A program made the translations under genes and the position numbers. DNA of 64,000 bases, taken from the NCBI GenBank assembly GCA_051294375.1, contig CM119265.1, positions 14,269,221-14,333,220 of the forward strand. Direction: 5' to 3'. Origin of the DNA: Paraspadella gotoi. Its lineage: Eukaryota > Animalia > Chaetognatha. Shown in pieces: positions 5,201 to 61,044 of this stretch. The notes below the pieces were generated by a model. It was not told the origin of the DNA. It did no database searches and saw only the letters and a list, made by a program, of their open reading frames with translations. Within the stretch, counting starts at the first letter, position 1. Every line of letters starts with the position of its first letter.

Positions 5201-8200
5201 GGGAGAGACAACGTTGATAACGAACTCGGCGAACCAGAAATTGGGCGAATAAGTCCGTCAACAATGCCCACAAACTCGGTGATGGCTGAAAATCACGTGA
5301 TTGATTCGAAAGAAATCGAATGTGCGACGATAAAAATGAAGTGAGCGCAGTAGCGACTGAAATTGTAGACATTTATTTTCAATATAGGCGTTGTTCTACT
5401 CAGTATGTTCCTTACCGGACTCCACTTCCGAAAAGAAAAAAAAGGTAACTTTACGAGTAAACAATCAATATTAAAAAGATCAGAAAAGGGTTATCTTTCC
5501 TATAACTTACTAATTGGATACTTTGTCTTGGACTTAGAAACAACTGACGAAAAGAAAAAGAAAAAAGAGCAGGAAAATCAAAATAAAAAGTTGAAAATAC
5601 TTTCAGATGCGCCGGTACAAATAATCTGTGATGGCGGATCTCTCCTAAAATATAATGCTTGAAAATTTATCCTCCAGAACCCCACTTATACGAAGGCGGA
5701 ACCGGATTACCGACGTCCCAACAGCGGACCTTTAAATGAGCGAATTTGGCAAACGTTTTTTTCCATTCGTCAAAACATATCTTGCCTGGAGGATGAAATC
5801 AGACGCGCCGCGGATTAAACAGCTTTTGTGGTTATGATACATTTGAATGAATATAAACCTTGTTCCTGTCTTGGATAAACTCACAAAGAGAAGCATGCGA
5901 GTTATTAACACCTAGTATTTACCTGAAGAAGAAATGAAGCGCCGTGTGAAACGAGGGCGTCTCTCTCCATCTCGCCGAAACGTATGCCGCCACCTACTTT
6001 ACGTCCCTTCACCGGTTGTCGGGTAATACTGTCGATCGGACCGGTAGTTCGAACCTTGAAGTTAGGTGATGATAGTATTTACATAAAACGCACTTTACTA
6101 TATGAAATTGGTACAACCAATATATAAATTATCCATTCATCTAATAAATAAGCTATCTTGCCCTTGACTTTGGACAGGCTTTGGTGGTTTAAGGCCTCCA
6201 TCACTCTTACAAGATAATGACATCGCAGGTCGCTGCAAGCTTTCAATCAAGACACACAACCAGTGCCAGAGTACCTGAAGTGGTATAATATTTTAAAGAA
6301 TGTTTCAATTGTATGAAAAGACCCCTTTCTTAAGTATTAGATCGGGTAATACAATATTGTACTCCACACTAGCATCAAAATACAAGGAGCTGAATTTTAT
6401 GTAAATGTTACAACTAATATAAAAATTATCCATTCGTTTAATAAATAATAATTATATAATTCAAGGTATTAGCAAGAGGAAAAAAAAGATCTGACCTGAT
6501 ATTTGTCGGAAACCATGTGTCTAAGTCTTTGGTAGTAAACGACTCCGATGAAGATCTCAGCGGTGAGCATCTGCCCCCCTATCCCGGAATACATTGTCTC
6601 CGTTCCATAATAATCGAATCCAGCTCGGCGCAAAAGTTCCCCGTGGTACTCGTGCGCAGGTCTAGATTCAGAAAACGCATCGGAAAACGGGGAAGCGTCT
6701 TCGGGTACGCCGGAAACGGCCACGCTTTTACCGGCCATGCTTTCCAGCATCATGCCGATCGTCATCCGAGATGGATAGCCGTGGGGATTGAAGATGATGT
6801 CAGGCACGACACCGCTCTCGCAGAAGGGCATGTCCTAGAAACAAGACGGATAAAAGAATAAAATGACAATTAGTCTAAATAAATAGATTAAAAATCAGAA
6901 TTATGCTACTTCCAGACCTGATGAGGATAGCGCAAGGAGCAAACCCCCTTCTGTCCATGGCGCGAGGCGAACTTATCGCCTATGATAGGGTGACGCACAA
7001 AACGGAGCGTCAAACATGCGCGCGCGAAACCGTCGGAACTGTGTTCGCTTTGAAGCGCCTTGAAAAATAAGAACATGAAAGAGACCCCATGACAGAATTT
7101 TCTATTTGAATTACCTTTATCTGTTCTACAAATGCGTTTTCGCTTTTGTTGAATCTCTTAACAATGGGCGTTTGAGGTTCGTTTACGCTCACGTAAGAGT
7201 ACATAGGGTCGCCGTGTTTTAATTCAGTTCCCAATGGAGGAAACCCGTCTGCTTCCAGACCAGGAAACTTTTCCGGGTCGGGATTTCCGAAAACGTATGG
7301 AAATTTGGAGACCCATCGACGCTCGCCGGTAACGTCGCGAAGATCAATAATTTCACTTTTGTAGATGTAGCCCCAACAGAAACCTCGCTCGAAGCTACCT
7401 AAAAACGCAAATAGAAAGGGGAAACGAAAAAAATAGAAAATTTAACTTTTTTCCAAATCTCACTAGCTGTATTTTATTAAAATATAATGAGCAACATTCT
7501 AGGGAATGCAACTAAAAACAGACGGGTCACCAATTTAAAAACAATTTTAGAGACTTAACTTATGCAAAGCTTTATAAATTTAAGTTGCATCCTGGGTCCG
7601 CCCGCTCTTATGGAATATATTTGGGTCTTTATTACCTGAAAATCGCATATGGATTAAAACCAAGAACATTTTTGGAATCCCTTTGGTCTTAGATTAATCG
7701 ATATTTTATAATATTTATAGGACAATAGCCTAATTATAATTAATATTGTAACATGATATTTCTTTTTTCTTTCCGCGAGAATAGAAGATTATCACGGCTT
7801 AGTAAAACTTTGCATCAAGGTAAGTTAGTTATTATTATTATTGTTGTTATTATTATTATTGTTATTATTATTATTATCATCTCTATTTTTTGTCTTTTAC
7901 ATTATTGACGTTTATCGTCAAAAGTTTTTTTTTTAAGGGCTTTAATCCGTACGGATACCCAGATTAACCCATTAATTTACTAACTTACGTAGTAATTTGT
8001 ATGTTTTGTTTAAGTTATTACAACCGTTTGAAATTTTTTTAAAAAAGTATTAGTGCCGTGACCTTAACCTAGAGTCAAGCAATCTCTCTCTCTCACATCC
8101 CTCTCTCTCTCACTCTTTCTCTCTCATTGTCTCGCTGAAGAAGGCTAAGATTTTGCATAAAAAGAGCAAAAAAATGTTTCTCTTTAAAATGACAGGGAAC

Positions 8201-11200
8201 AGAACATTTTATTTATAATTATAAAAAGTTAATTCCGCTTAACCACCTCCAACATTAATTGATTTTTTTATGTTTTGTTCTGTTTTTTGTTATTACAATT
8301 TTTTGTAAGTTGTCATGGTTTTGAATATTTTGTGTAGGGTCTTTTGAGCCATCTGGTACAAGAATATTCACTGTTTTCAAACATTCTAAAATTTTAACTA
8401 ACCTTTATTGATTATCATAGCGTCTTCCATATCGTAACCTGTGTACGAAATCACGGCAACAACAGCATTAGTGCCCATCGGATAATTATCCATTTGGTAG
8501 TAATCGTAGACTCTGGGTCTGACGAAGGGCGTTTGAGGAGTCATCAAGCGGTAAAGCTTATTGTCAGCACGCTGTGGATAAGAGTAGGCGGGCGTCGCCA
8601 TAGTCTGCTTTCCCATCTGACACTGATACATGTTTCTTGGACTTTGATTAAAGTCAGAAAAAGGAGTGAGGTTCGCGATAACAGAAAGCATGTTTGTTTT
8701 TGAGAGCTCCAAGTGGGTTGTCTGGCCCGGCGAGATTTCCGTAGAATCGACGGCCACGTTGAGATAAACCTGATAGTCAAATAGAGGAAAGGAAAAGGAG
8801 AGTTAAAGGGAATTGGAAAGAAATGAAATAAAATGAGATAAAACCTGTTCAAATGATCCGATCCATTCGACGGAATTCGCTGAAAGGTTCTTCACCGGCC
8901 GCATCATTCTCGCTGGACTACAAAAAGAAAAAAAACATTTCTATTTTTTAATTGCGCCGCGAGTACTCGCGGAGCAAATCACTAAGTCACTTTTCGGTCG
9001 GTCGGTCTGTCCCACTTCTTTTAAAAATACACAACTCGCCTATAGTTAATTTATCATTTGTTAAGACAGGAATAAATCTTATATTTAAGTGACTGCTAGC
9101 GCTATACTTGATTGGCAGGGCGAATGGCAGGATGTTAGAATTTTGCAGGTGGTGCTTTATAATTCGAGCCTCTGTGTATACTTGATTGGCAGGGCGAATG
9201 AGGAGTTAGGAATTTTGCAGGGTGGTGCTTATAATTGAGCCTCTGTGTTATACTTGATTGGCAGGGCGAATGAGGAGTTAGGGAATTTTACAGGGTGGTG
9301 CTTATAATTCGAGCCTCTGTGTATTAAGGCGTAGTAAAATTTCTAAATTTAACTTTATGTAATTGCATTTTTTGCTTAACTTTTTTGAGCTCTATTAGAA
9401 TCAATTAAAAAACTAAAATATCAAAAGAAATTTTTTAAATATTATATAATTTCAATTTAATTTAATATTACAATTTCATAAAATTCAGTTCCTTGTATTT
9501 TGATGCTAGTGCGGAGTACAATAAGTATTCCCCGATCTAATACTTAAGGGAGTGGTCTTTTCATACAATTGAAACATTCTTTGAAATATTTTCCACTTCA
9601 TTAATAGGGAGGCCAGGTACTCTGGGAGTAAATAAACGGGACTGTGAGAGAGTCTTGATTGAAAGCTTGCAGGGCTGCTATGTAATTATCTTGTAAGAGT
9701 GATGGAGGCCTTAAACCACCAGAGCCTGTCCAAAGTCAGGGGCAAGATAGCTTATTTATTAAATGAATGGATAATTTTTATATTGGTTGTACCAATTTCA
9801 TAACAAAATATAATTTTAATTAGCGAATTATTCATGTTTAGAACATTTTTTCAAAAAAATATTTTTAACACTATAACTAATACCAATAATGGATTTGTTT
9901 AATACTGTTCCCATTAAAATTTGAATTTGGTTGGCTACCGCTACCAATAGCTACAAATAGGACGATCGAGGTGATTTTCAATATTTTACCCCTGAGCTAT
10001 GATACAGCGCCATGGAGGGTCCACCCAGGGGGGCAAACTATGACCAAAATTTATTTTTAAAAAAGACAATTTTTTTTGTAGGATCATTTGCATTAACATT
10101 TAACTTTGTAGAAAAATCATTTTAAAACAAATTTTCAAAAATTTAAATTGATTTTTCTTCTTTTGAATATTGTTAGTTCATCATTTTAGATCTAATTTTT
10201 GCTCCCCTAACGAAAGCTAGCATGAACCTATGTTCATGATCCTAGAATATAAAGCAAAAATTGGTTTTTCATAATAATAGATTTACTTTTCGGGACAAAT
10301 AAACGTTTCTGTAACTGTTCGGGATAAAAAGTTAAACAAAATTTTAAAAAAAAAAATTTATTCAATTTTTGCTTACCTGAGATGACCTATTAGGGACCCA
10401 TATCTCGTCAGGTCAATTTTCAAAATCCTCTCGATATTCCCATTTCTATTGCCCTATAGTTAGTTCATACAAATTTTTTTCAATGTCGGTCAAGTAGTTT
10501 GATCGGAANNNNNNNNNNNNNNNNNNNNNNNNNNNNNNNNNNNNNNNNNNNNNNNNNNNNNNNNNNNNNNNNNNNNNNNNNNNNNNNNNNNNNNNNNNNN
10601 NNNNNNNNNNNNNNNNNNNNNNNNNNNNNNNNNNNNNNNNNNNNNNNNNNNNNNNNNNNNNNNNNNNNNNNNNNNNNNNNNNNNNNNNNNNNNNNNNNNN
10701 NNNNNNNNNNNNNNNNNNNNNNNNNNNNNNNNNNNNNNNNNNNNNNNNNNNNNNNNNNNNNNNNNNNNNNNNNNNNNNNNNNNNNNNNNNNNNNNNNNNN
10801 NNNNNNNNNNNNNNNNNNNNNNNNNNNNNNNNNNNNNNNNNNNNNNNNNNNNNNNNNNNNNNNNNNNNNNNNNNNNNNNNNNNNNNNNNNNNNNNNNNNN
10901 NNNNNNNNNNNNNNNNNNNNNNNNNNNNNNNNNNNNNNNNNNNNNNNNNNNNNNNNNNNNNNNNNNNNNNNNNNNNNNNNNNNNNNNNNNNNNNNNNNNN
11001 NNNNNNNNNNATTACAACTTTTTAAAATTTTGATATTTTATTACTGAAAATGAGCAAAAACTATTAAAATCATTGGATGATGATAATGATAAAAATAATT
11101 TTTTCAGGTTTTTCTTAATTTTGACCTACTTATCATAAAAAAATATTGAAAAAAGAATTATACTGTGTAGATAACTATTTATAAGCTATCCGAATCTGCT

Positions 11201-15543: not shown

Positions 15544-16719
15544 ATATTATTAGTGGTCCAAACAAATAAAAAACTAAAATTAAGTCAACCACCATATTAC
15601 AAAATAAAAAAGTCCAACGAAACTGTTCTGAAACCGTTCTGAAACCCAGTATGGGTGGCGCCAAAATGACAATTAATTTGACTTTAATTAACCTAATTAA
15701 AATTAAAGTGGGATGGACTGGGTAATGGCAAAGCCGCCGATAGGCACGGGCCCTCTGCCAGATCCAAAGCTCTGGACTAAATAAACATGCAGTCTTCAGA
15801 TATTTCCCTGTCAACACGAGGTGACACCGTTTCGTGTGGGGCGCCCTTTGAATTTAAGTAATATAAGGATCTGACGACCATCTAATAATGCTACGAAGAC
15901 CGGTTCAGTCAACAAAGATATCAACTATCCATTCGTCATTTGCCCTTGGTGATGAACAGAAACTACATAGGTTCTTCTATGATTCTTCAGTTATATCATT
16001 TGTGATTATAACATTGTTAAATTACGTTTTAAATGCTCTCATTTTATTATTGTATCTGTTTATTAAATATTTTTGGCGATCCCGGAGTTGAATTCCTTCT
16101 GGAGGCTTATGGGAAAACGAAGAGAAAGAAGAGGAAAAAATAAAGTTTGTTTCTTTACGGAAAAGAAAATTTAAGACCGTAACAATAATATTAAAAACGT
16201 TTTTAAGCTTCACGAGCTAAAGATTTCTTTTTAATTCTTTAAAAAACTTAATTATAATTTTTTTTATTGCCTTTGATAAATATTTATAAAATAACAATTT
16301 TTATTAGTGATAACCACGATTATTTAATAATTCGGATATGTTTTGGTTCTTGTTTTTTAAACCTTCATCAACCAGTTTTAATAGTTTTAATAAATATTTG
16401 AATACTAATTTTAAAAGATAGAGAGAGAAGCAATTTTAACCTTGATATCTCTCACTATCTCCGAATTATTAAATGACCATTATAATCATAAAAAAAACTC
16501 TGTTACTTTATAAATATTATTATTATATTTTTTATAAATTTATTAATATTTAAATATTATTTTTTGAAATGTTTAATTATTATATATTTAAGCAGAAACT
16601 TAATTTTAAATTTAACTTTCATTTACCCTTAACCCAAACTTACCCCTAACCTAAAGTTACCTCTACCCCTAACTTACCCTTACCCCTAACTTACCCCTAA
16701 ACCTAACTTGCCCCTAACT

Positions 16720-17077
16720 TATTTTTAACCTTAATTTATTGTAACCTTAATTTTTACCCAAATATATATTGGTTGTACCAATTTCATATAACAATAATAA
16801 AATATATTAAAAAAAAATTATGATATCTGAATTTTTTTATTTTTTTTCCCGAAACGTTGTCTTTTTTTTTAAAATTCTTTAAGAAAAACCTTGCTCTTCG
16901 TTTTCCCATAGGCCTCCAGAGGGCATTGATCTCCAGGAATGCCAACATGGGAAAAAAATAAAGGAATTCAGATATCATAATTTTTTAAAATATTTTTTAT
17001 TATTGTTATATGAAATTGGTACAACCAATATATATTTGGGTAAAAATTAAGGTTACAATAAATTAAGGTTAAAAATA
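16720..17077. repeat. Long inverted repeat (~113-bp arms, ~130-bp spacer)
   Basis: 16720-16833 is the near-perfect reverse complement of 16965-17077. Confidence 0.85.
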
Positions 17078-29100: not shown

Positions 29101-32100
29101 ATTCTACGAACGCCCCTTTGAGTGAAAATTATAAGAATTCTATCGAGGCGATGGTACCTGGTGCAGATTCTGTGCAAGAATCGGGAACAGTTGAGGTTGT
29201 CGATGTTCAACAATCTCTCAAATTAGTCGACCATGAAAAATCGTCAGGGTGTTTTGAAAAATTTGTAAGTCTTGTCAGCCATGATAAATCTACAAAAGAG
29301 GTCGATGTCAAAGATTTTCCTTCTTTGATGGAAAAACTTCATTTACCTGCTGATATATTAAAAGAATCTCGTCGCAAGGAAAATGATTTTGAAAGAGAAT
29401 CCAATCCGGATTCAATTAACAGTAGTGAAAAGATTATATTTGATAAACAGAAAGATGAACGTCAGTGTCTTAAAATAGTTGACAAAACGCTTCATAAATT
29501 TTCAACTTTTCCCGATAACACCGAGCAAAATTTACAAGAAAATTCTGGTTTATCAAGCCCAAATACTTTTGGAATGCTAAAGAAAGGAACTGAAAGAAGT
29601 CCGGTCATCACTTATGTTAATATAAGTGAAAATATTTCACCTTTCAATGAAACATCGAGAAAACGGGTAATTGACACACCAAAATTAAGTTTGGGCTATC
29701 ACTCTCAACTTTATTTGCCGTCTCAACTGACACTTACAAAACCAATTCAAAATGTAAACCTAAAAACTCCAGCGGGTGATGAAATCCAGTTAATTCAAGT
29801 TTCCTCTTCCTCTGAAGGAGTTAAGCACGGACCATCTCCACTAAAAAAGTTAAAAACAATCGATAATATTACTCTCACTAGAAATCAAAATATGAGGCTA
29901 TCAGTCGTAAAATCTGCTCTAAAAAAGTTAGAAGGATACATAAAAAACTTAAAAACAGATGATTTTGATATAAATGGCTTTAACATCAGTTCAAAGTTTA
30001 GAACTCAGAGAAGATCATTAAGAGGAAGTGGAGAGGATTTAGCCTGGTCCCGAGAATTATCAATGGGGAAAAAAGTACTAGTTAATAAAACTGAATCCGA
30101 AATGATTCCAGGTGTAGCTAATGATGCTAAATCAAAGTTGCCCCCTGATTTGCTAACGGTTACCGACAAAGTGCTTAAGCAACATTTTAAACCGTTAATA
30201 GTAGCAAATCTAGAGGCGAAAGACCCTAACATTTGCGCTCACGCTAAAAAAATATCTCTTTCACAGGTGCCCGAGCTTTTAACATTGAACTTGAAACCAC
30301 CGGATGAACCCGATAAAAACCCGAGCGAAAATCTCGGTAATTCTGCGGATTCAAGAAATAAATCAGAAGGCTTTTATTGCAAACTCTGCCCGTTTTCTGT
30401 TTCTACTAAAACTGATATTCTTGCGCACCTAGTTAATGTTCATCACAATTCTCCTTCTTCGGAATTTATTTTTTTGGGGGACTCTGTTGATAAATTTGAT
30501 AAAAAATCTGTCGCAGCGACATTATCAGTTCTCCCCAAGAGTAAATCATGTAAGCGAAAAGTAGCTGAATCGCCAAGTTTCGATGAAGGTGATATAAAGA
30601 ATGTTTTTGAAGGTACGGTCAAGGATCCCTTTGTTAAGCTGATAAGATTGCACAATGAAGAAAATTCCGAAAAGCAAACGCCTGTTATTAAGGATTCGAG
30701 CGGCTTATCCGATTTTATTTCTAAAAAGCAAGAAAGAAATCGAAGCTGCCAGAATCAACAAGATACCAAAGCATTCATGGAAAAGGAAAGGTTAGCTAGT
30801 CATTGGGAAGATACCAGCTGTGATGAAATACTCGGCTCGCTCCCTAAATTCGGGGTGAGGGTTTGCCCTAGAATTCGACCGGCATCTAAGTTAGGGACTC
30901 CGAGTAGTTCAGTTGGCCGACTCGCCGCATCTGATATTTCGCGTAACGTTCTACCTAATTTGGGCACGCGAGTTCGACAAAAAGATTCTTCAAACCAAAC
31001 TGTTGAGTTAAAATTTCTTCGCGCAAACGCATCTTCTGTTATAAGTGACGAATCCTTAAAGGCAAATTCTACAGTAGACGCAACTCATGAGACTACTAAA
31101 AAGAAACCTCCGGATCAAATCGTCGCGTCAACCTTCGCTCCGAACGTGCCTGGGATTACACCCCTGGAACCAACAAGGCATGTCAGAATTTGGAATTGTA
31201 GTGCTGTTAAAATTGTTTTGAGTTCAGATTTTCAAATTATTTTTTTTAAATTCTCATACCAGAATAAATAAGTAGTCTTCTGTTCCCAAACGTAATTTGA
31301 ATTGAATTGAAATGTTTAAAATCGTAAAGAAGACATGGACGGTGATAAGTATAAACTGAAGAGACAGTAATTATTGATATGTGTTTGGATCAGGCTGTAA
31401 CACCATGTTACAGGCGGGTTTAGCGCCCTGTCCCTCTTAACTGCGAGGCGACCACTGGGCTAGAACACCAGACCTTTGGGTTGGGAGGCGAATGACTTGC
31501 CTCCGGCACCAATGGCCGATGATGAACGGTTGGTTGATTTAAGTCCACCATACATTCCCCCCTCTGTTGCGTCTCTTCAGTGAATTGTTGTTGGTGGAAA
31601 GTTCGTCACCAAGTTGAGGCATGTCGCCTGATGTGTTGTTGGCGGAAATATCATCGCCAGGTTGAGGCATGTCGCCTGAAAGTGTTGTTGTTGCTGTTGT
31701 TTGGAAGTCGGGCTCACCAATGAAGAGACAGTAATTATTGATATGTGTTAATGACAGAACCGTTCATTATATTTATAAGCAGTCCCTGAGCTTTGAATCA
31801 GGCTGTAACACCATGTTACAGGCGGGTTAAGCGCCCGGTCCCTCTTAACTGCTAGGCGACCACCGGGCTAGAAGGGTTGGGAGGCGAATGACTTGCCTCC
31901 GGCACCAATGGCCGCTGATGAACGGTTGGTGGATTTTAGTCCACCATGAAACATTAATTGTATTTTAATTATGGAAAGGCAGTGCGAATGCAAAAAACGT
32001 TATTTTTTATCAAATATAAGTCGTCTTCAGTGGAAAAGCGTTAGGAAGAATTGTTTATTCGTTCCAAATTGTCACTTAAAAAAGAAGTTGAAATGTTTGG

Positions 32101-38189: not shown

Positions 38190-38362
38190 TCCCTCAGTCG
38201 TGACCGGTTGGATCATTGAGTAAAGTGACTACGAGGCACTAGGTGCAATCTAAACTCAGTACTTGCTCTACGGGAAGCGTGAGGACGGCCGTAAACACCC
38301 TTGCGGGCGTGGGAAACTCTTTGGCTACTAGTCATGTTCAGCCCATTTATGGCTTTATCCCC
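38190..38362 (+). mobile_element. Degenerate family D LTR fragment
   Basis: ACGGGAAGCGTGAGGACGGCCGTAA (5' half of the twister) is retained; P4 is deleted. Confidence 0.65.
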
Positions 38363-41604: not shown

Positions 41605-42304
41605 AAGGCCTGGTTTTACAGGGCGCCACACCCACACACGGTGTCACCTCGGGCAACAGCGAGACAGCATGTTCATGTAGTCGCAGAGCTTTGGATCTGG
41701 AGTAGGCCCTTTGGCTACAGGCGGGTTAACCCGGTCATTTTCCACTTTCTACATGACAACCTCAGGGCTCGAACAGGGACGCACAATTGGGATGGTGCAT
41801 TAGTCCACTGAGGCGCTGCGAAAGAAACAGTTTTAATCCATCTGCGGTGATAAGACCACCAGACAGCTGCCCCCAGGACTCTCACATATGAGAGTACGAA
41901 GCAGGGGATGAAGTGCATGTCTCTCCACTGAACCTCTCTTCATTCTGGTGGTCTATGCGGAGTGGCAGCTGCGTAGCTCAAACCACATCAATGGCAGAGG
42001 AGTATTATCATGCCCAGTTTGCGTGTTCGGATCACGTCGGGCTCACCATTGAGGCTGGTTTTACAGGGCGCCACACCCACAGCGGTGTCACCTCGTGGCA
42101 ACAGCGAGACAGCATGTTCATGTAGTCCAGACCTTTGGATCTGGCAGTAGGCCCTTGCCTACAGGCGGGTTACCCGGTCCATTCTACTTTCTACATGACA
42201 ACCTCAGGGCTCGAACCAGGGACGCACATTGGGATGGTGCATTAGTCCACTGAGGCGCTGCGAAAGAAACAGCTTTAATCCATCTGTGGTGATAGGACCA
42301 CTAT
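41605..42304 (-). mobile_element. Family C twister retrozyme: LTRs ~42050-42304 and ~41605-41865, PBS 42031-42048, G-rich PPT ~41866-41874
   Basis: 445-nt repeat period; PBS TGGTGAGCCCGACGTGAT; TSD not clear. Noisy mirror copy at ~45290-46100 and a fragment at 15705-15850. Confidence 0.78.
42119..42197 (-). ncRNA. Twister ribozyme, type P5, family C (other copies at 41674-41755, 15705-15779 and ~45405-45487; each is imperfect)
   Basis: By-eye consensus: P5 CATGTAG/CTACATG; GTGG GA TGG [ACCGGG] T^AA CCC GC C; P3 GTAGG/CCTAC; G CCAGA TCCAAAGC TCTGG. T1 is CCA:TGG. Confidence 0.72.
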
Positions 42305-43716
42305 AAAGTAATATTTAATATTTAATCCATCTGTGGTGATAGGACCACCATAAAGTAATATTTAATATTTAATCAAGAGGAGTAATATAAATTTTTTTTT
42401 GAAAATGATTGTTTAAATATTTAGTCAAGACAAAAATACTTTGCTAATAGTCGAAATTTTATATTATCTCTGGAGTTGGTCCCTATCAATAAGCATTGTT
42501 TTAAGTTTCTATATCTTAGTAGAATTCAGCCATTCAATACGGTTTTTTCGATGTTAAAAAGTGTCTTTTTTTTTCGCCTCAGTGTAAAGCATCAGTAAAA
42601 GTCATGACGCTCTGGGTGAAGTACTGATACTTAGCTCACTTTTATGAAATAAACACTAATAAGTATTCAATAAGTAGCCATTGACAACACAAAAAAGCCC
42701 CAATTTAACCNNNNNNNNNNNNNNNNNNNNNNNNNTTTCAGATATAACGATTGAGAACTTACTAAACCTTATCATTAATATTATAAAAAATAAATATTAT
42801 TTTACGGTTAAATGCGACGGAGCCTTTTGTGTTGTCAATGGCTAAACTTAAAGTGAGCCTAGAAGTATCAGTACCTTAAAAACCTTCATGCCTATTATTA
42901 ATAAGTTTGAATTAGGTATAATATTTTGCGGCTGATTAAAACTTAGCAAAGCTATGGTTTCTGCAGAATTGCCGCGGGTAAAGCAAATGTTTTCTTAATT
43001 CATATAGGCAATTTCTGAATCAAAATATATCTGCTATTATTATTTTTTAACAGATAAATAAAACAATATTATTCTCATTTATTTGATTGTTACATTCGTT
43101 ATCAACATATATTTTCAATTTGTCTTATTACTTATATTTTAAGCCCAAAAATACTTTTCCCAGAAGGTTGTTGTATGAAATATGATTATCAATAGTACCT
43201 AGCCATGGCCATTTATTCTGTAATCTACTTGAGCTACTTACCAGAAACACAGAACCAATAAAATTATTTAACGGAAGATTATTCATTGATATTAATCTAA
43301 TTAATTCCATTAATTAACAGATAGTTAAAGAAATTAGTATTAACAATGAGGATGGCATACATTAAAAGAGATTTGCACATAGTACGTATTCAGTTGTATC
43401 ATCTGATATGATTGACAAGATTAAAACTCGCATCAAAGATGACTGTAACAATTGTAACAAGTCGCCCAAAATATTTTGTTATCTTATTTAGAATGGCAAA
43501 GTTATTAGCAATTCTTTGCCAGAATATGATAAGGAGTTACTCAAATACCTCCCCAAGTCTGATTATATTAAAAAATTCGAGCCAAATAATATATCATCTA
43601 CTATCATTTTAATATATTCTTATTGGTTGTTCTTTCTATTTGTCCTTATGTTTTTAAGATTTTGGAGAGAGAAAAACAATTTCTTTAACAACAACGACTT
43701 TATTCACGATATAATA

Positions 43717-43761
43717 AACAACATGTTTCGGACTTTTAATTTTAAATCTTTCATCAGGGTG
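43717..43761 (-). ncRNA. Degenerate hammerhead (PLE type)
   Basis: Minus strand CTGATGA...GAAACATGTT; stem I pairs poorly. Confidence 0.4.
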
Positions 43762-46700
43762 CGGCCTTATTTAATCTTTGATAATACATAATTTTTTGTT
43801 CTCCACAAGTAATAACAGCACCACTGAGAAGGCATGGACGGCGAAAGAGAGAGCAGAGGAGAGAGAAATACAATGCTTTCTTCTATAACAAAGAAATAAG
43901 AAAATAGACAGTGGTGCAGTTTTGGGATAGCGGTAGTTTGAGCAGACGAGAGGAGAAGGTTAGGTGAGGAAAAAAAAATTAAATTTGGGCAGAAGAAAGA
44001 GAGAGAGAGCAATGCAAGAGAGTCAAATATAGCATCCAATACATTATACATTCTATACATTATTCATCTTCTTTCTCTCTTTGTCACAATTTCAAATTTC
44101 TTTTTCCTCACCACCATTCTTTCTCCTCTGCTCAAACTATACCCATATCCTCACAAACTCGGACAACTGTCATTTTTTTTTTTAAATTCTGTGAAAACAT
44201 ATTATTCTCTCTCTCTCTCTCTTCCCTCCATCCCTTTCACTGTTTATTGCTGAAACAAAAAAATTGATTGTACTATAAAACTTAAAAATAGCACTGATAA
44301 AGACTTTGCCAATTAAATCGCAAACATTTATGTTTAATCTAATAAAAAAAACGTTGTTGTTAAATGTTTTTTTCTCTAAAATCGCAAAATAGTTGTCTTA
44401 CTATTATTTTCATCATTAACAAAGATTTAATGTAAATAAAAAATGACATCTGTTTGAACATCTTGAAAAATGTTATCTCTATTAAAAACAACATATAATG
44501 GACCCAACCCCTGCTCACCAAAGCTGAGTTAAATTGATAAATATTTTTAGCTAATTAATTTTATTTTTACAAAAATCTATTTGTCTTTCATTACAAGTAT
44601 TCGAAAAATATTTGGGCCTAAAACTTATTGCATCTTCAACTGTTGAGCAAATAAAGATCTTTAATATGTTATATTTGCATAAAGATTTTGTTTTAAAATT
44701 AATACCCGAAAAAAAACTTATCCTATTGTTTTTTTTACTTTTAAATTATACATTTTGATAATATTTGGCTTTTAAATTATTGAAGAAATATTTCCCTTTT
44801 TAAATCTTAGCCAATTAGATCATAAGTTTGTCAGTTATATCTCTAGTTTAAAGCTCTGTTTCCCTTAATTAAAAATTCCCGTACTCTTACTTATTCAGTT
44901 AACTACTAGGGTAAACCAAAAAATTGTCTCCATTACTATTTAGAAAAAAATTTTGCTCTAAGATTCACCGGCTATTATGATGCTTTTACACTGAGGCGAA
45001 AAAAAAGACAACTTCTTAACATCGAAAAAACCGTATTGGCATAGACGCTGAATATCTACTAAGAATATAGAAACTTAATAACAATGCTATATTGATAGGA
45101 CCAACTCCCGTAAAATTGTACATTAGCAAAGCTATTATTTATAATATTTCGACTATTAGAAAAAAAAAAAAAAAAATATATTTCTTAATAAATATCTAAT
45201 CAATCATCTTTCAAAAACAAATTTATATTACCTCCTCTTGATCTATTAATATTCTATGCCATCACCAGATGGACTAAAAATTAATTACTCTCTCTATGGT
45301 GCGTCCCTATCACCACAGATGGCATTAAACGCTGATTTCTTTCGCAGCCGCCTCAGTGGACTAATGCACCATCCCAATGTCGCTCCGCTGGTTCGACCCT
45401 GAGGTTGTCAATGCAGAAAGTAGAATGCGCCGAGCAGTAACCCGCCCTGTTAGGCCAAGGGCCTACTGCCGATCAAAAGCTCTGGACAATAGAGAACATG
45501 CTGTTCGCGTTGGCCAGAGGTGAAAGCCTGTGTTGCGTGCATGTCGCTTGGCCTCCGCTCCGTCCTAGCTAAAACCTGAGTCCTCAATATCGCCGAGTTC
45601 GGAGGCGTGGGATGGCCGGACAGTTGCCGATCCGAACACGCAAAACTGGGTAGAGGGGGGGTCAGGGGCGAAAGGAGATGCATAATACTCCTTCTGCCAT
45701 TGTATGTGGTTGAGCTTTACGCCAGCTGCCACCTTCCCGCATAGAGGACCAAGCCAGCCAATAGAAGGATGAGCGTTGCAGGTGTTTTCCGTACGAGTTG
45801 ACATCGCACAGGCGTGTCATCCCCGTCTTTGGAATACATGTGTAGCTTCGCGCTCTCGTCATGTGAGAGATTCTCGGAGGGAGGACTCCCGCGCTCTGGC
45901 GCGCTCTCTAATTCACCGCCAGATGCGCATTAAAACGGTTTTTCATTTCGCCCAGTATACGCGACGCCTTCGCATCTCCTAGGCCGTAAAGTGACACCAA
46001 AGGGCCATTCCCAAAATCTGCGCCTATGACGTCGCCCTGCTCTCCGGTTCCGACCTTGAAGGTTGTCTAATTGCTAGACAAACATTGGGAATGCGAAACA
46101 AAAAAAACCTCGTGGAGGAAATCACCAAAGCCTGTCCAAGTTCTACCCGCCTGTAAAGAAAGGAAGTGGCAAGATAGCTTACTTACTAAATGAATAGATA
46201 ATTTTTATATAGGTCCTGTACCAATGTCATTATAAAAACTAAAGCATCAGCGTTGTTCGTAAATCGCCAGTAGTTCCCGCAATACGTCGTGCGCCTCACT
46301 AGCTAATCGGATGAAGGAAGACTCCGCCTTCACGCGAAAATCTCTTCATCGATCTCTCGACGCGCCCGCCCCAGTCAAAGTCGTGACGTCGACGACGCAC
46401 CCCTGGCGGAGGAAGGAAAAGACGATCGTGGAACGCACAGTACCACCCAAACATCGACACTCCACTTGGAGGATGGGGAACGGTCTGGTGGCTGACTTTA
46501 TATCTTTGCTTTGTGACCATCTGACATTTTTTTCCCCTTTCCCATTAATCAATTAAGCTTACGATTCTTTTCTCGATCCACCTGTAATACTCCTGGACAC
46601 AGCGGTCCGGACACTCCACTTAAAGATTATGCAACCTGTCCAAGTCCGGAACGGCCAACGCTCCGTCGTGACGATTCCACTTAGTGAGGCCACGTCACCC

Positions 46701-46932
46701 TGAGCGTTCCGCCGCAGAGATGCTCCGATCCGTAGATCCAATTGTATAAGCTCAACGCTGACCTGTTGGATCCAAATTTAAAATATAAAAGTCAATTTCT
46801 ATTTTTTTTTCACTTCCATTGAAACACTGGCGCATTTCTAGAACCCCCTCCTCGACCTAGCGGAGAGGGAGAAGACGTCGAGACAGAACTACCCTCAAAC
46901 CCGGGGGGGCGGCGGCTCCAGAAAGTTAATAA

Positions 46933-47166
46933 TATGGTGGACTAAAATCCACCAACCGTTCATCAGCGGCCATTGGTGCCGGAGGCAAGTCATTCGCCTC
47001 TCAACCCAAAGGTCTGGGGTTCTAACCCGGTGGTCGTCTGGCAGTTAAGAGGGACGGGGCGCTTAACCCGCCTGTAACATGGTGTTACAGCCTGATCCGA
47101 AGCTCAGGGACTGCTTATATTGAACGGTTCTGTCACTAACACATAACAATAATTACTGTCTCTTCA
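46933..47166 (+). mobile_element. Family A solo LTR with an intact twister
   Basis: Same ends as the 31.4-kb LTRs (TATGG...TTCA); TSD ATAA at 46929-46932 and 47167-47170. Could be an assembly collapse of the mirrored full copy at ~49545-50166. Confidence 0.75.
47041..47114 (+). ncRNA. Twister ribozyme, type P5, family A (most intact copy)
   Basis: P5 GCAGTT/GACTGC; GAGG GA CGG [GGCGCT] T^AA CCC GC C; P3 TGTAAC/GTTACA; G; P4 CCTGA/TCAGG with loop TCCGAAGC. T1 is CCG:CGG and T2 is GC:GC. Confidence 0.85.
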
Positions 47167-49544: not shown

Positions 49545-50166
49545 CAGTCCCTTGAGCTTCGGATCAGGCATGTAAGCACCTGTTTACAGGCGGGGTAAGC
49601 GCCCCGTCGCCTCTTAACTGCGCAGTACGACCCTCGTTCGGACCTTTGGGTTTTTAGGGCGGAATGACTGCCCTCCGGCACCAATGGCCGCTGATGAACG
49701 CGTTGGTGGATTTTCGGTCCATATGTACATCCACCCCTCCCGTAGGGAGAAGTCTTGTTGCGTCTCTTCAGTGTTTGTTGTTGTTGTTTGGAAAGTTCGT
49801 TCCACCAAGTTGAGCATGTCCGCCTGAGTGTGTTTGTGCGGCAGAAAGTGCATCGCCAGGGTGAGGCATGTCGGCCTTGAGTGTTGTTGTTTGCTGTTGC
49901 TGTTCGGAAGTTGGGCTCGACATATGAGAGACAAGTAAATTAGTTGATATGTGTTAGTGGACAGAACCGTTCATATAAGCTAGGGTGTTCCTGTAGCTTT
50001 CAGATCAGGCTGTATACCATGTTACAGGCGGGGTGAAGCGCGCCCGTCCTCTTTAACTGCCAGACGACCACCGGCTTAGAACCCAGACCTTTGGGTTGAG
50101 AGGGAATGATCTGCTCCTGGCACTCAATGCCCGCTGATGAACGGTTGGTATTTTAGTGCCACCATT
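49545..50166 (-). mobile_element. Family A element in noisy mirror-duplicated sequence
   Basis: Two LTR copies plus the internal region matching 31357-31948, with many small indels. Confidence 0.6.
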
Positions 50167-51405
50167 ATTATTAACTTTTCTGGAGGCGCCGCCCCCCCGG
50201 GTTGAGGGTAGCATTCTTGGTCTCGCGTCTTCTCCCGTCTCCGCTAGTCGAGAGAGGGTTCCGTCCAGAAGCTATAACGATGAACTACTAAATTGATAAT
50301 ATAATAAAAACAATAAATATTTATTTAGTTACAATGGGGCTTTTGTGTTTTCAATGGCTACTATTGAATTACTTATTCTAGTGTTTATTTCATTAAAATG
50401 ATGCCTAAGTATCATACTTCACCATCTCTCTCTTTTAATTTTAAAACAGTTTTTTCTAAGATTTTTTTGTAGATTTAGATTTGTCATAAAAAGTTAATAA
50501 AAAGAAATTAACTTTTTTTGAAAAATTCCTTTATTAAGTGGGTCAAAAATTAGAAAAGGCTATATTTTAAGCTGAAAATTAACTTTTTATATATTAAATA
50601 TATTTTTTTAAATTTTTAACCCACTTAATGAAAGAATTTTTAAAAATTATTTATATTTTCTTCTATTAACTTTTGACGAGGAATTCAAATCTGCAATCAA
50701 AATTAAGAAAAGCCTATTTTGAAATTTTTCGATTTTATAAGGATAGTACTATATATAAATATAGCCTACTGCAAAAATTAAAAAACATAAAATTAATTTT
50801 TTTTACAAATTAATGTTCACTGATGGTATGTTGTTCATAATTAACTTTCACTACGTTCTAATGCTCAAACAAAAATTTCTACATTTTGAAGTATACTTTC
50901 AATGGACAAAACAATTCTTATGTGGTTCTATACCCAAATAAACCAGATTCAGATAGCTCATAAAAAGTTGTCTACACAAAGTATAATTCTTTTTTTAAAT
51001 ATTTTCATGATAAGTGAGTCAATAATGATTGCTTAAATAGTCAAGACAACTAAAAATACTTTGCTAATAGTCAAAATTTTATATTATCTCAGGAGTTGGT
51101 CCCTATTTTTGGTCGGATCTGCTTATCGCAGATTAGACTATAATTAGGGGTAGCCGCACTTAATGGGGCGAGTCAAAAATTTAGAGTTAGTACATACTCA
51201 AACAAAAATTTATACATTTTTAAGTATACTTTAAATGGACAAAAAATTTCTTATACCCTCTATACCCTAGTAATTAATTTTTTAATATTTATTTATAGAA
51301 AGGAAAGGGCAAAAATTTTTTTAAAAAATTTTAAATTTTAAGACCAGATTTCAGATAGCTCATAAAAAGTTGTTTACACAAAGTATAATTCTTTTTAAAA
51401 TAGTA

Positions 51406-52090
51406 ATTAAATAAGGCGCTACGTGGGCTGAAGATGACTGTCCGTAACTTCTATAACCCTCTAGCAGCCATGGAACGGCGTCCCTGGGTTTGGAACCAGG
51501 CTTGAGGGTTTGCCGATGCCCCCAGGCGGCTTACGGCCGTCCTCACGCTTCCCGCAGGTAGGTTACGGGTTGGGATTGAAACCGGTACCTAGTGGTCATG
51601 AGCTGATGGCTTTACTCAATGAGCACCGGGTCACAACTGAAAGTTCATGAATTCTAGGCAGGGTGACCTAGGCAATGCCCGATTACATGCCCCCCAGATT
51701 GTAACCACCCTGCACTGCTTCCAGTGGAAGGAGGGGAGCAATCTTCACCTAGACCAAGGCCTGGAATCAGAAGGTTGGAATACGCTCGACAGGATGGGCT
51801 CACCAGTGTGGATAGGGCGCTACATGGGCTGAAGATGGCTGTCCGTACTTCTATAACCCCTCTAGCAGCCATGGAACGGGTCCCTGGGCTTGGAACCAGG
51901 CTTGAGGGTTTGCCCATGCCCCCAAGGCGGCTTACGGCCGTCCTCACGCTTCCGCAGGGTAGGTACCGGGTTGGGATTGAACCGCGGTACCTAGTGGTCA
52001 TGAGCTGATGGCTTTACTCAATGAGCCACCGGGTCACAACTGAAAGTGTCATGATTCTAGGCGTGGTGAACCTAGGCAGTGCCGACTACA
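51406..52090 (-). mobile_element. Family D twister retrozyme: LTRs 51807-52090 and ~51406-51687, PBS 51796-51805, PPT 51688-51695
   Basis: 400-nt period; LTR ends TGT...ACA; PBS TGGTGAGCCC; PPT GGGGGGCA; possible TSD AGTA (left end degenerate). Confidence 0.8.
51876..51955 (-). ncRNA. Twister ribozyme, type P5, family D (second copy at 51475-51555)
   Basis: Minus strand: GCGT GA GGA [CGGCCG] T^AA GCC GC C; P3 TTGGGGG/CCCTCAA; G CCTGG TTCCAAGC CCAGG. T1 is TCC:GGA. Confidence 0.82.
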
Positions 52091-52217: not shown

Positions 52218-52261
52218 GCAGACATGTTTCGACTCAGAGATTTTCGAGTCTTCATCAGCGC
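52218..52261 (-). ncRNA. Minimal hammerhead ribozyme in the inverted pLTR copy at the PLE 5' end
   Basis: Exact reverse complement of 55194-55237, within the inverted repeat ~52170-52410 / ~55050-55285. Confidence 0.85.
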
Positions 52262-52356: not shown

Positions 52357-52381
52357 AGAGGTTAAAGTTTCCAACAAAGAA

Positions 52382-54957: not shown

Positions 54958-54998
<41 letters not shown>

Positions 54999-55108: not shown

Positions 55109-55154
<46 letters not shown>

Positions 55155-55193
55155 TTAACTCACAAATTGTCCCATTATTCACAACTGTCAAAA

Positions 55194-55237
55194 GCGCTGA
55201 TGAAGACTCGAAAATCTCTGAGTCGAAACATGTCTGC
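55194..55237 (+). ncRNA. Minimal type I hammerhead ribozyme in the PLE 3' pseudo-LTR
   Basis: gcg CTGATGA a GACTC-loop-GAGTC GAAAC AT GTC tgc. Stem III is the palindrome ACATGT; predicted cleavage after C55234. Confidence 0.85.
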
Positions 55238-55298
55238 AACTTATTAATAATAAAATCGTTGTAACAATTCAAATTTCCTTGTAAATCTCTATACAATA

Positions 55299-55898
55299 AG
55301 GCGTAGTAAAATATCTAAATTAACTTTAATTAAAATTCTAAAAGTGGGAACGAGCAACATTATACTAATAAACATTATGTAATAAAAAAATTATAATAAA
55401 TTTTACAATTTACGCAGTAGGCCATATTTATACTAGTACTAATCCAATAAATGTTAAAATTTCAAAACAGTTTTTTCTAAGATTTTTTGGCAGATTTGGA
55501 TTCGTCATAAAAGTTAATAAAAGAAATATAACTCTTTTTAAAAAATTCCTTCATTAAGTGGGTCAAAAATTAGAAAAAGCTATATTTTAAGCTGAAAATT
55601 AACTTTTTATATATCAAATATAGTTTTTAAATTTTTAACCCACTTAATGAAAGAATTTTCAAAAATGACTTATATTTTCTTTTATCAACTTTTGACGAGG
55701 AATTCAAATCTGCAATCAAAATTAAGAAAAGCCTATGTTAAAATTTTTTAATTTTATAAGGATAGTATATATATAAATATAGCCTAATGCAAAAATTGAA
55801 GAACATAAAATAAATTTTTTTTACAAATTAATATTTACTGATGGTATGTTGTTCATAATTGACATTTAGAATTTTTGTATGTAACTTTCACTACGCCT
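55299..55898. mobile_element. TA-flanked palindromic MITE; relatives at ~9325, ~47750-48100 and ~50430-50860
   Basis: TA|AGGCGTAGTAAAA ... TTTCACTACGCCT|TA with an internal inverted repeat. Confidence 0.6.
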
Positions 55899-58343: not shown

Positions 58344-61044
58344 ATGGCCTTCGTATTTCCCGTCGTCTCCAATCGGCGTCCATCGCAGCGCCGGTCCGAT
58401 GAATTGTTCGCACTGTTTGGGAAGGAGAATGTGCGCGGCATGGACGATTATTTCATTAAGGATTTGTGCAACGAAATTTCCGGAATTAATGAGAAAATGA
58501 AGTAAGTAATCTCTACCTGTTGGAAAAGGCTCTCTGACATCAGCGTTAGCGGTTGTTATGGGCTAACTCCATAACTCTGTCCCCCGACGTCCCGGGTTCT
58601 ATCCCTAGTTATAGCGGTTATTACTTTGTTACTTTGTAAACGGACCAATGCAATGGCCCTGTATTAGATTTGCCTAAATATGGCAGTTTAACTTTTTTCT
58701 ATAATCCAGGTACGAAGGCAACCGTTTGGCTAGTTTTCTTAACTGGCCATTTACGGTTTCTGTTTATCCCACTCAATTCGCTAAAGCGGGGTTTTATTAT
58801 ACTGGAAATAACACAGAAGTCGTCTGTTTTGCATGCGAAGGGAGAATTAAAGATTGGAAGGTAAGCTTGACGAAATATTTAATACTAAAAGTCTAAATAC
58901 AATACATACTCCAGCTAACTTTTACATTCGCCGACCGGGATTTTGCGGTGTAAGAGGAGAAGCAGGATCTTCTGTTGAGCTTGTAGTCAAGAATCCGGGA
59001 TAAGTCGCGCAACAAGGCCGACCAAATTCCAAGCAGCGACTAAGCCTTTGCTTCGTGGGAAAGCTGGGTCGAAGATCACGGATAAAATATTTTTGTGAAA
59101 GGAACAATGTAGCTTCACAGTCAAGCTGAACCAATGGCTATCATAACAGCGTGACTGCAGCGGCTGTCCATCTTCTCTCAATCTTTTTTTCTTTTTCTCT
59201 CTTTTTTTCTTTTTCTCTCTCTAATAATAATATGACTTTTATAAAAAGTTAGATAATAAATATATATATAAAATATAAATGTCATAAAAAAATTTCAATG
59301 TCTTCAGCGTCAAAAATGAAAAAAAATGTTAAAAATCTCTACTTTTTCATGTTTTGTAGTAGGAACTATTATATGATCAAACATTTTGGTTATTTTTTGC
59401 AGCTTTAACCTAAAAAAATCATAAAACATATTTTACAAAAGGTTTTGTTTTTTCTGGCAAATCCGAAACTTAAAACTGAAAAAAATATAATTTTATGATT
59501 TTATAAGGATATTACTATAAAGAAAATTTAATTTATGATACTGTTATAAAATTTTTTTGAAAAAGGGCCGAATTATTTTTTATTTTATGTACAAAGGCAA
59601 CAAAAAATATGGTTCCATCTGTATAATTTAACTCCGAGGAGCAGACACAGAGACATGAAACGTTTAAACTTAATCCTATGACAACAGCCGGGTCGCCTGT
59701 GATGCCCATTGGGATGGGGCATCTCACTGTTAGCTTTGGGGGCTTCCGACCCTCAGTGACGCCTCCAGTCACTGGCGCGGTTACCCTAGGACGGTCTCGC
59801 TTTGCCAACGCAGAGGGAAGTCATTAGGACTGTGGATGGAAGACGACGCCAGTACGCCTGGGATGGTGTGTTCCCCCTCTGAGCCAATAGATTTGGCTGA
59901 AGAATGGTGGACGTGAGGCGGTGTGAATATACCGCCACAATCCCATTATTATGAATTCGAACGTCCTCTTCAGAATGGAGATCAGCCGTTACAAAAGCAC
60001 ATAAGGACATTTCCGACCTGCGCTTTTGTCTGCGGCAATGTCCCTGGGGTCAATTTGCTCGCGCCTCGTGTGGACGAAGAGGAGTTTCCTGATCTCGCCC
60101 GCCTTGACCGTAAAGTCGATGAACTTGCGAAGCAGGTAGTTTTTATTAAGCTGCCGTTAGAATTGAAAATACTTATAAGTCATTTCTTCGTATTTCAGTA
60201 ATGTTTTTTTAACAGATAGAAGAAACGAACATCTTTCTTTCAACTCGTCGATCTTCGGAAAATACGAACATGACGGCGTCGACGACGCCCGGCCAAGTAC
60301 TAACGAGAACATGGGCACAAAGCGCGGGGGGTGCCTCACAGAACATGAGACTGTCACAGGTGGTTGACTGTGCTAATTTTTGTTTAGTGATAATATGACT
60401 AATCCTTGTTTCTTTTCTCAGGGCGTTGTTGGTCTCCGGGATAAAAACGAACGTATGAAAACGTTTGTTGGAAATTGGAGCGATGCGTGGCCCATAACCC
60501 CTCGCGCTCTGGCGGATGCTGGTTTTTACTACTGCGGTGTGTGGAAAATCGATCTATTCAAGTCAATTCGTGTTACTTTCGATAACCAAATCTAAAATAT
60601 TCAAAATCAATTCTGAATAAATTGACAGGTCCCGAAGACTTGGTGCAATGCCCTTGGTGCTTTGGCAAACTCCAAGGGTGGGAACGGAATGACGATCCAC
60701 TGGTTGAGCATGCGCGCCACTTCCCTTCTTGTCCTAAATTCGGCAACAGAAAGGCCGTCACCGCCAGTTCGCTAAATATACACAATTCACAAGGTAAGTT
60801 TCCATCTTAAATGACAAACTTATTGACCACAATCTTCTTCACAGAGTTTTTTCTTTCACACTATCATCAGGTGATTCTAATTCTGGCGAGTTTACTGAAG
60901 ATGAGCTGGGAATTTTGACAGTTCGTCCCTGTAATCCTCAATATGCAATCGAAGCAACTCGTCTTCAGTCGTTCAGAAACAAATGGCGTGGGAATCCTTG
61001 TCAAACTCCCGAAAATCTTTCTTCTGCCGGTTTCTTCTTTATTG
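58344..61044 (+). CDS. Inhibitor of apoptosis (IAP/BIRC) with at least three BIR domains; partial. Exons: 58344-58501, 58710-58860, 59974-60135, 60216-60359, 60422-60536, 60629-60793, 60871-61044
   Basis: BIR1: RLASFLNWP..FAKAGFYYTG..VVCFAC..DW|..H..FPTC. BIR2: RMKTF..W..LADAGFYYCG|..VQCPWC..W..DDPLVEHARHFPSC. Start of BIR3: RLQSF..LSSAGFFFIG. GT-AG introns are in frame. Confidence 0.92.
59677..59939 (-). mobile_element. Family B solo LTR in IAP intron 2
   Basis: Same ends as 32209-32450; TSD ATCC at 59673-59676 and 59940-59943. Confidence 0.82.
59729..59809 (-). ncRNA. Twister ribozyme, type P5, family B (intact)
   Basis: Minus strand: P5 GTTGGC/GCTAAC; GCGA GA CCG [TCCTAGGG] T^AA CCGC GC C; P3 AGTGAC/GTCACT; G AGGG TCGGAAGC CCCC. 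T1 is CGG:CCG. Confidence 0.82.

Follow-up and report, generated by a model that had tools for sequence, protein, structure and literature searches.

We analysed a 64-kb stretch of Paraspadella gotoi DNA (assembly GCA_051294375.1, contig CM119265.1, positions 14,269,221 to 14,333,220), here called the window, in which five families of repeats, A to E, carry a twister ribozyme fold with a short palindrome in the place of stem P1. The gene content of the window is eukaryotic, and likely that of an animal. An intron-split Rpa2 gene occupies the minus strand from ~5.9 to 15.2 kb and is nearer to its human than to its yeast counterpart (167 bits against human RPA2, 146 and 141 bits against yeast RPA2). 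A multi-BIR IAP gene lies on the plus strand at 58.7-61 kb, and a Pfam scan of the open reading frames (ORFs) recovered a Spo11/Top6A-type exon. An unbroken ORF of 2452 codons at 23913-31271 (plus strand) has no Pfam match, and the window contains 660 N.

The twister assignment of the initial annotation was confirmed, with a type-P5 fold in all five families. Similarity searches within the window gathered 17 copies (A 5, B 2, C 4, D 3, E 3), whose intactness was judged with a scan for core features. All of these features, including the conserved positions of L1 (G-A and U^A-A) and L4 (U-NNN-AA-NN), are kept in five copies, namely A1, B1, D1, E1 and, with one P4 mismatch, E2; the other 12 of the 17 are decayed. 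The assignment is carried by these catalytic positions together with both pseudoknots, which covary among the families. The 3-bp pseudoknot T1 is CGG/CCG in A, CCG/CGG in B, UGG/CCA in C and E, and GGA/UCC in D, while the 2-bp pseudoknot T2 is GC/GC or AC/GU, giving four T1 and two T2 combinations. P4 pairs, and P2 has one mismatch in every intact copy (2/3 or 3/4 pairs). Defects of this kind are tolerated in type-P1 twisters (PMC11662667; articles identified by PMC number or preprint identifier are cited throughout from the portions of them available to us).

With a strict structural descriptor, the window gave three perfect GC-rich matches plus an AT-rich one attributed to chance, compared with 1, 0, 0, 0 and 0 matches in five shuffles; a looser core scan added five AT-rich matches, which were set aside. 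Rfam yielded no match in the window at gathering score. The best relaxed twister match, Twister-P5 at 9698-9740 (copy E1), reached 25.6 bits against the RF02684 cut-off of 37.6, with the P1 insert empty. In place of the closed P1 hairpin of a type-P5 twister there are only 6-8 nt, for which a hairpin is unfavourable. A cross-family MAFFT alignment misplaced B and was not used. Judged from their sequences, the elements represent a real, above-chance variant of the type-P5 twister that departs from the class in P1 and in Rfam score, and that is echoed independently in a metagenome contig (L199) and in the tails of Naiad elements, both described below.

In families A, C and D, direct repeats of ~230-285 bp come in pairs spaced by 401-443 nt, with non-coding interiors of ~120-190 nt and a G-rich tract before each downstream repeat. 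The exact word TGGTGAGCCC has three matches in the window, and all three lie 1 nt behind the upstream repeat, the 5' long terminal repeat (LTR), of the A, C and D pairs, in the position of a primer-binding site (PBS). Perfect duplications of 4 bp at the target site (TSDs) were found at four insertions: GTTT at an A element, ATAA at an A solo LTR, and ACAT and GGAT at two B solo LTRs. No clear TSD was discerned at the C, D and second A elements. Family B is present in the window only as solo LTRs, with no paired form seen. Families A, C and D are non-autonomous two-LTR elements similar to miniature terminal-repeat retrotransposons (TRIMs), and B consists of solo LTRs. The LTR nature originally claimed therefore stands for A, C and D (paired LTRs, PBS and polypurine tract, PPT) and for B (solo LTRs with 4-bp TSDs), and falls for E, which is non-LTR. 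The converse idea, which made every family a Penelope-type partial tandem, was given up for A-D in view of the PBS, the purine tract and the TSDs. No reverse transcriptase (RT) or integrase domain of Pfam was detected among the window ORFs scanned, so that an autonomous LTR partner was not found there. The TGGTGAGCCC motif had no match in the searched full-text literature mentioning retrotransposons.

The core-intact fold A1 (47050..47106, plus strand; P1 GGCGCU at 47058-47063, predicted cut after U47064) belongs to a 234-bp solo LTR (46933..47166, plus; TSD ATAA). The A two-LTR element with TSD GTTT (31357..31948, minus) has two decayed twisters, with P1 at 31835 and 31427, 408 nt apart; its PBS-like TGGTGAGCCC is at 31710..31719 (minus), 1 nt after the 5' LTR, and its G-rich purine tract at ~31563-31553 (minus) precedes the 3' LTR. 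The interior of this element (31580-31700, minus) contains a short duplicated segment and AAC repeats, perhaps the remnant of a parent element's leader. A second A two-LTR element (49545..50165, minus) is indel-rich, with a degenerate PBS and decayed twisters 439 nt apart (P1 at 49603). Segments 46841-47863 (plus) and 50261-48349 (minus) form an inverted duplicate with a solo A LTR in one arm and an A two-LTR element in the other, both with the same left flank, which reflects LTR-LTR recombination, two haplotypes, or noisy reads in the assembly. Between 41 and 52 kb, single-base indels that resemble assembly noise are found in many repeat copies, and copy-to-copy differences in that region are for this reason weak evidence.

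In family B, the core-intact fold B1 (59739..59800, minus; P1 UCCUAGGG at 59791-59784, predicted cut after U59783) sits in a solo LTR (59677..59939, minus; TSD GGAT) inserted antisense between BIR/IAP exons. The second solo LTR (32209..32450, minus; TSD ACAT) holds the decayed twister B2, with P1 UCCUAGUG and a broken L4. The two-LTR element of family C (41605..42305, minus) has P1 ACCGGG at 42178 and 41735, 443 nt apart, in two decayed twisters, and a PBS-like motif at 42048-42039 (minus). A garbled copy, C3, is found at 45397..45503 (plus), and a diverged one, C4, at 15705..15790 (plus), where GA-UGG is kept, P1 reads ACUGGG and an insertion follows UAA. Family D is represented by a two-LTR element (51405..52090, minus) with P1 CGGCCG at 51940 and 51539, 401 nt apart, and a PBS-like motif at 51805-51796 (minus). 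Its fold D1 (51885..51948, minus; predicted cut after U51934) is core-intact, and the partner D2 has one T2 pair broken. The diverged (81%), truncated copy D3 (38259..38320, plus) keeps CGGCCG (38286).

Family E is built differently. Its non-coding units of 297 and 322 nt have terminal repeats and a common 3' end, and the window search found no PBS match near them. Family E is a non-LTR partial-tandem unit, as in elements mobilised by Penelope-like enzymes, and it fits the description of a 150-450-nt non-coding tandem unit without PBS or PPT. The core-intact fold E1 (9698..9739, plus; P1 AGGCCU at 9706-9711, predicted cut after U9712) lies antisense to Rpa2 in a unit at 9471-9803 with an 11-nt terminal repeat. 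E2 (6164..6205, minus; one P4 mismatch; P1 AGGCCU at 6197-6192, predicted cut after U6191) belongs to a 297-nt partial-tandem unit (6099-6448) in the sense orientation. The surrounding Rpa2 intron measures ~440 nt, and the exons on either side of it match Rpb2_6 positions 245-356 and 351-372. E3 (46114..46237, plus) is a broken remnant sharing the E 3' end. An inverted-repeat element at 16720-17077 has 97-bp arms (97%) in which 28 nt are the same as at the 3' end of family E; it is possibly an inverted, truncated E insertion.

Hammerheads gave no Rfam match in the window, and no hammerhead core match lies inside the E units. Hammerhead cores of the minimal Penelope type, with the palindrome ACATGT as stem III, were noticed at 52221-52258 (minus), 55197-55242 (plus), 61647-61680 (minus), 14548-14600 (plus) and 43720-43757 (minus), so both palindrome-type ribozyme classes, hammerhead and twister, occur in one genome region. 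The segment 52168-55286 is a decayed, frameshifted element without a Pfam match, flanked by 240-bp inverted repeats that each hold a hammerhead core. From its RT and GIY-YIG-like motifs we take it to be Penelope-like. The family D element lies ~80 bp outside its left inverted repeat.

The families depart from known type-P5 twisters in P1 itself. The initial annotation had placed 6-8 self-complementary nt between the T1 strand and the U^AA site, and the segments it listed were found exactly there in all five families: GGCGCU in A, UCCUAGGG in B, ACCGGG in C, CGGCCG in D and AGGCCU in E. A perfect central 4-nt palindrome (GCGC, CUAG, CCGG, GGCC and GGCC, respectively) is present in 5/5 families with four different cores, so that self-complementarity is indeed kept while the sequence changes. 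The middle pair of the palindrome, which is impossible in any hairpin, is self-complementary in all families. For comparison, 3.5-6.9% of positions in these elements have a central 4-nt Watson-Crick palindrome, and ~20% of all-GC 4-mers of the window are palindromic (395/1926). A palindromic minimal stem thus adjoins the cut site, as in the double-hammerhead type. Decayed copies lose the palindrome, as seen in B2 (UCCUAGUG) and in the garbled A5, C3 and E3.

The outermost pairs are also informative. Among 88 phage P1 stems, the first pair is C-G in 28, G-C in 20, G.U in 18, A.G in 10, A-U in 9 and G.G in 3. Since this spectrum includes both, neither the G.U end of family A nor the A.G mismatch that ends P1 of family C is unusual for a P1 helix. 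The families' G.U, U.G and A.G end pairs match those of phage P1 stems, which suggests pairing at the RNA level.

Phage twisters served as a control for the length of P1. Patterns allowing a P1 of 4-30 nt gave 94 distinct parses in viral contigs. All 86 of the 86 twisters with fully paired P2 have a P1 hairpin of 14-30 nt, and a palindromic P1 centre was found in 4/68 even-length phage hairpins (at most one P2 mismatch). A pattern with the family-E-type T2 gave 39 parses in 124 loci (45/64 parts scanned), of which 37 have 16-29-nt P1 hairpins and two were set aside as chance-like. In all 123 phage type-P5 twisters (86 + 37), P1 is a hairpin of 14-30 nt, and four short-P1 patterns detected no short-P1 twister in viral contigs. 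Five phage twisters carry the core of family E (GA UGG, UAA ACC AC, UCCAAAGU) with 18-25-nt P1 hairpins, so that P1 is the main difference between E and ordinary phage twisters. As the same core is found in phages, a special kinship of family E with Naiad twisters was dropped. In four phage contigs (L094, L101, L597 and L617), type-P5 twisters are clustered in groups of 3-5, spaced by a few hundred bases.

A P1-blind pattern with a 4-12-nt gap produced 261 matches (17 viral, 123 metagenome, 121 genome) in a scan covering 8/64 parts of the metagenome contigs and 12/64 parts of the genome contigs. Four matches passed the T1/P2/P4 filter, and only L199 combines a four-pair P4, P5 and an Rfam twister match (24.2 bits, also below 37.6). 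Its P1, CAAUUG, is a perfect palindrome with a fifth core. Since this palindrome is AU-rich, GC richness fails to explain the palindromes. Of the 60 matches with a 6- or 8-nt gap, three have a palindromic gap, L199 included. L199 is a metagenome contig of 1097 nt with a 123-nt exact terminal repeat and is therefore a circular or tandem 974-nt unit, in which no ORF could be recognised; its sequence makes it a candidate twister retrozyme circle. A viroid-like nature is unsupported, as no second Rfam ribozyme, no Pfam match in six ORFs and no unusual folding (z -1.2, ordinary) were found for it. The imperfect matches L133/L214, L166/L341 and L252 were set aside, and L045 is a mis-parsed long-P1 twister.

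A further parallel comes from Naiad elements. When 12 tails from the 54 families listed in PMC8557442 File S5 were viewed by eye, 5/12 showed a type-P5 fold with P1-region palindromes; in the last ~600 nt of the other 7/12, the twister fold was not seen. The five are bivalve tails: four precede the Bpla, Mphi, Scon and Mmer headers in the file, and the fifth is in its part 23. Their P1 region of 20-25 nt contains two palindromes, of which the first is TAGCTAGCTA, GGCGCC, TGATGCATCA, TGGAGCGCTCCA or GGTGCGCACC, and the second, beside the cut site, is AACC-A-GGTT, AATC-T-GATT, AAACC-T-GGTTT, AAACC-A-GGTTT or AAACCGGTTT; AATC-T-GATT is a compensatory change. Naiads are described as lacking canonical hammerheads, and the word 'twister' is absent from the main text of PMC8557442 as available. 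No Naiad ORF was found in the window. The Naiad tails back the palindrome pattern without proving it.

The recurrence of the palindrome bears on two other explanations. LTR element RNAs are packaged as dimers, often via 6-nt palindromes. The palindromes could therefore be kissing-loop or packaging signals of the retroviral dimer-initiation type, with each ribozyme folding on itself. However, the P1 position of the palindrome is common to LTR elements, the non-LTR family E, L199 and the Naiad tails, so it tracks the ribozyme and not one packaging route, and we consider this explanation improbable. Slightly less probable again is that the folds are catalytically inactive, or that the palindromes act at the DNA level. 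All copies score below the Rfam cut-off, every intact copy has a P2 mismatch and 12/17 copies are decayed, as this explanation would have it, but covarying pseudoknots, preserved catalytic positions, wobble end pairs and the occurrence of the same core in phage twisters argue against it.

Folding energies were then considered in a nearest-neighbour model. As the initial annotation had held, P1 is too short for a stable hairpin: in a monomer no more than 1-2 pairs can close on a tetraloop, and the model rates the open loop as more favourable. P1 self-duplexes are favourable, at -8.1 to -11.0 kcal/mol (-3.0 for L199). At 1 M standard state, the calculated energy of the strand-swapped dimer is 11-16 kcal/mol lower than that of two monomers. 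The modelled gap per site to a fold compatible with activity is 6.5-11.6 kcal/mol in monomers and 0.5-3.5 in dimers; the same gap in phage monomers has a median of 3.3 kcal/mol (n=88), comparable to the dimer range.

Our working explanation, put forward as a hypothesis and not as a result, is P1-mediated, dimer-enhanced cleavage, with two copies exchanging strands through their palindromic P1; we assign it a probability of about 0.6. P1:P1 pairing of two copies in one transcript, as originally suggested, is the simplest use of the palindrome. Pairing of the P1 palindrome with the identical segment of a second copy would give a strand-swapped double ribozyme, for which cutting is predicted to be much faster than for a copy on its own. 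Along a two-LTR transcript one would meet 5' half a, P1 a and 3' half a, next the spacer, and then 5' half b, P1 b and 3' half b; the swapped fold would be nested, the outer halves pairing with each other, P1 a with P1 b, and the inner halves with each other. If both U^A sites were cut, a 401-443-nt unit with PBS and purine tract would be freed, which may then become circular and serve as template for an autonomous LTR element, as in plant LTR retrozymes. As this product would have a single ribozyme, it would be cut slowly and spared while the two-LTR precursor is cut, the likely benefit that we infer for the arrangement.

Several observations weigh against this explanation. No compensatory P1 change was seen within any family among the 17 window copies. 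L199 is a single case, expected by chance about 1 in 20. The Naiad palindromes are longer and interrelated, some could close 3-4-bp hairpins, and the third T1 pair varies. No two-LTR element in the window keeps two intact ribozymes. In folds of three natural two-LTR elements, the cross-copy P1 pairing probability was 0, 0 and 0.02, and forcing this pairing cost 2-7 kcal/mol, figures obtained from decayed copies with pseudoknots ignored. Permuting P1 left the monomer gap as it was (19-80% of permutations reached at least the natural value), and a random 6-nt linker raised the phage gap to 5.2 kcal/mol. As permuted P1 and short linkers reproduce the effect, the monomer gap is no evidence for designed inhibition, and a designed self-inhibition of the monomer was rejected. 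Taken together, the energy models point both ways on a dimer advantage. Finally, a mini-twister without P1 cuts at almost the wild-type rate (PMC5408937), and natural type-P1 twisters include P1 defects without loss of cleavage (PMC11662667). The latter study focuses on type-P1 forms, and the P1-less RNAs tested are open-ended, unlike a closed 6-nt tether.

Six nucleotides can span a helix end, and these observations could also be explained by ribozymes that act as monomers. P1 would then be no more than a 6-nt tether, or else a vestigial stem of 1-2 bp closed by a tetraloop, and the palindromes would be leftovers of hairpin shrinkage or compact CUNG-like loops; the CUAG of family B resembles CUUG-type loops. 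The dispensability of P1 (PMC5408937), its tolerance of defects (PMC11662667), the unfavoured cross-copy pairing in natural-element folds and the antisense position of E1 and B1 in host introns are all in keeping with this. However, action as monomers leaves the self-complementary middle dinucleotide in six lineages with five cores unexplained, and wherever the hairpin can be closed it is less favourable than an open loop in the model. We regard monomer action as unlikely.

As for P1-mediated dimer cleavage, the initial annotation had gone further and called the dimer obligate, which is unsupported because P1 is dispensable in tested twisters: in the mini-twister (PMC5408937), and in type-P1 forms, where P1 defects are harmless (PMC11662667). 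A strictly obligate dimer, with the lone copy essentially inactive and solo LTRs silenced, is nevertheless included in our estimate as its more tentative part. It would be consistent with the palindromes, with the sense orientation of the core-intact E2 within the small intron of an essential gene, and with the monomer gap of 6.5-11.6 kcal/mol against the phage median of 3.3. This gap, however, is mostly an effect of model and composition (the same with permuted P1; 5.2 for phage twisters with a random 6-nt linker), and E2 is a single copy with a P4 mismatch. Moreover, the hammerhead analogues retain 6-22% cleavage as monomers (PMC7229834). The nearest precedent for dimer-enhanced cleavage is an axolotl hammerhead with one pair and a palindromic tetraloop, whose cleavage rises from 6% in the monomer to much more in the dimer (PMC7229834). 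Plant retrozymes are predicted to keep their hammerhead in a blocked conformation (PMC4918200). A lone twister copy probably keeps some activity, for which reason dimer-enhanced cleavage is likelier than an obligate dimer.

Two consequences drawn in the initial annotation are not supported. The silence of intronic solo copies rests on a single sense, core-intact copy: in mapped introns, E2 is sense, and E1 and B1 are antisense. E2 in the Rpa2 intron fits a low monomer activity, and the antisense E1 and B1 would also be expected from harmful, active monomers, so that these three cases decide nothing. Likewise, it is doubtful that distinct palindromes keep the families from cross-pairing, because D and E have a common core; the D:E cross-duplex reaches -8.7 kcal/mol, compared with -10.7 and -9.1 for the self-duplexes.

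Dimer-dependent cleavage via a palindromic mini-stem is established for hammerheads, and Lunse et al. (2017) and Forster et al. (1988) reportedly dealt with such dimer-acting minimal forms. A natural twister with a palindromic P1 or dimeric action, or a twister in an LTR, was not found in the full-text literature searched, which leaves most subscription papers outside its scope, as well as the Roth 2014 alignments, the RF02684 seed and the supplement of PMC11662667, where short-P1 members may be present. The anatomy is new in itself, as LTR retrozymes are described only from plants, and metazoan retrozymes as lacking PBS and PPT, in the available portions of PMC7761336 and PMC4918200. The boldest form of our proposal, which we hold to be doubtful, is a natural obligate-dimer twister that counts its own copies, cutting only two-LTR or tandem precursors and sparing solo copies and circles, and that is shared with Naiad. 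If true, such a copy-counting twister would define an animal class of LTR retrozymes, and palindrome-driven dimer cleavage would be a convergent rule of retroelement ribozymes in two unrelated folds. It would suggest selection in retroelements for ribozymes acting only on tandem precursors and would give a role to twister P1, a conserved stem called dispensable in vitro. Because the motifs score below Rfam thresholds, many such elements may be unannotated. A copy-sensing twister could also serve circular-RNA expression.

Compared with the type-P5 twister (RF02684; PMC5408937), the elements have in common the opening at P5, GA and U^AA in L1, U-NNN-AA-NN in L4, T1, T2, P4 and an optional P3, and differ in a 6-8-nt palindromic P1 in place of a 14-30-nt hairpin, the P2 mismatch, the sub-cut-off score and the eukaryotic retroelement host. 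P1-less twisters (the mini-twister, Schistosoma T-variants and RTE 5' twisters; PMC5408937, PMC8501958, PMC7761336), which are active although a proper P1 is missing, share with them this lack and a link to retrotransposons, but those are type-P1 forms open at the P1 end, and the available portions of these sources do not describe a palindrome or dimer for them. Naiad (PMC8557442) shares the type-P5 fold and the P1-region palindromes in five bivalve consensus tails; unlike our families, it is autonomous and has a P1 region of 20-25 nt with two palindromes.

The dimer-acting minimal hammerheads of Penelope-like elements and of amphibian satellite/retrozyme repeats (PMC7229834, PMC6765202) belong to a ribozyme class unrelated to twister, and since twister P1 was dispensable in tested constructs, dimer dependence cannot simply be assumed from them. 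Family E resembles the metazoan non-LTR, Penelope-derived retrozymes (PMC7229834; bioRxiv 10.64898/2026.07.22.740005) in its ~300-nt non-coding unit, partial tandem arrangement and common 3' end, but carries a twister in place of a type I hammerhead and shows no multimeric array in the window. Families A-D come closest to the plant LTR retrozymes and TRIMs (PMC4918200, PMC7761336), with which they share a non-coding sequence, one ribozyme per LTR, PBS, purine tract, 4-bp TSD and solo LTRs. In contrast to these, the host is animal-like, the ribozyme is a twister and not a type III hammerhead, the PBS differs from the tRNA-Met one described for them, and the unit measures 401-443 instead of 600-1000 nt. 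By this analogy, the elements look like an animal counterpart of the plant LTR retrozymes.

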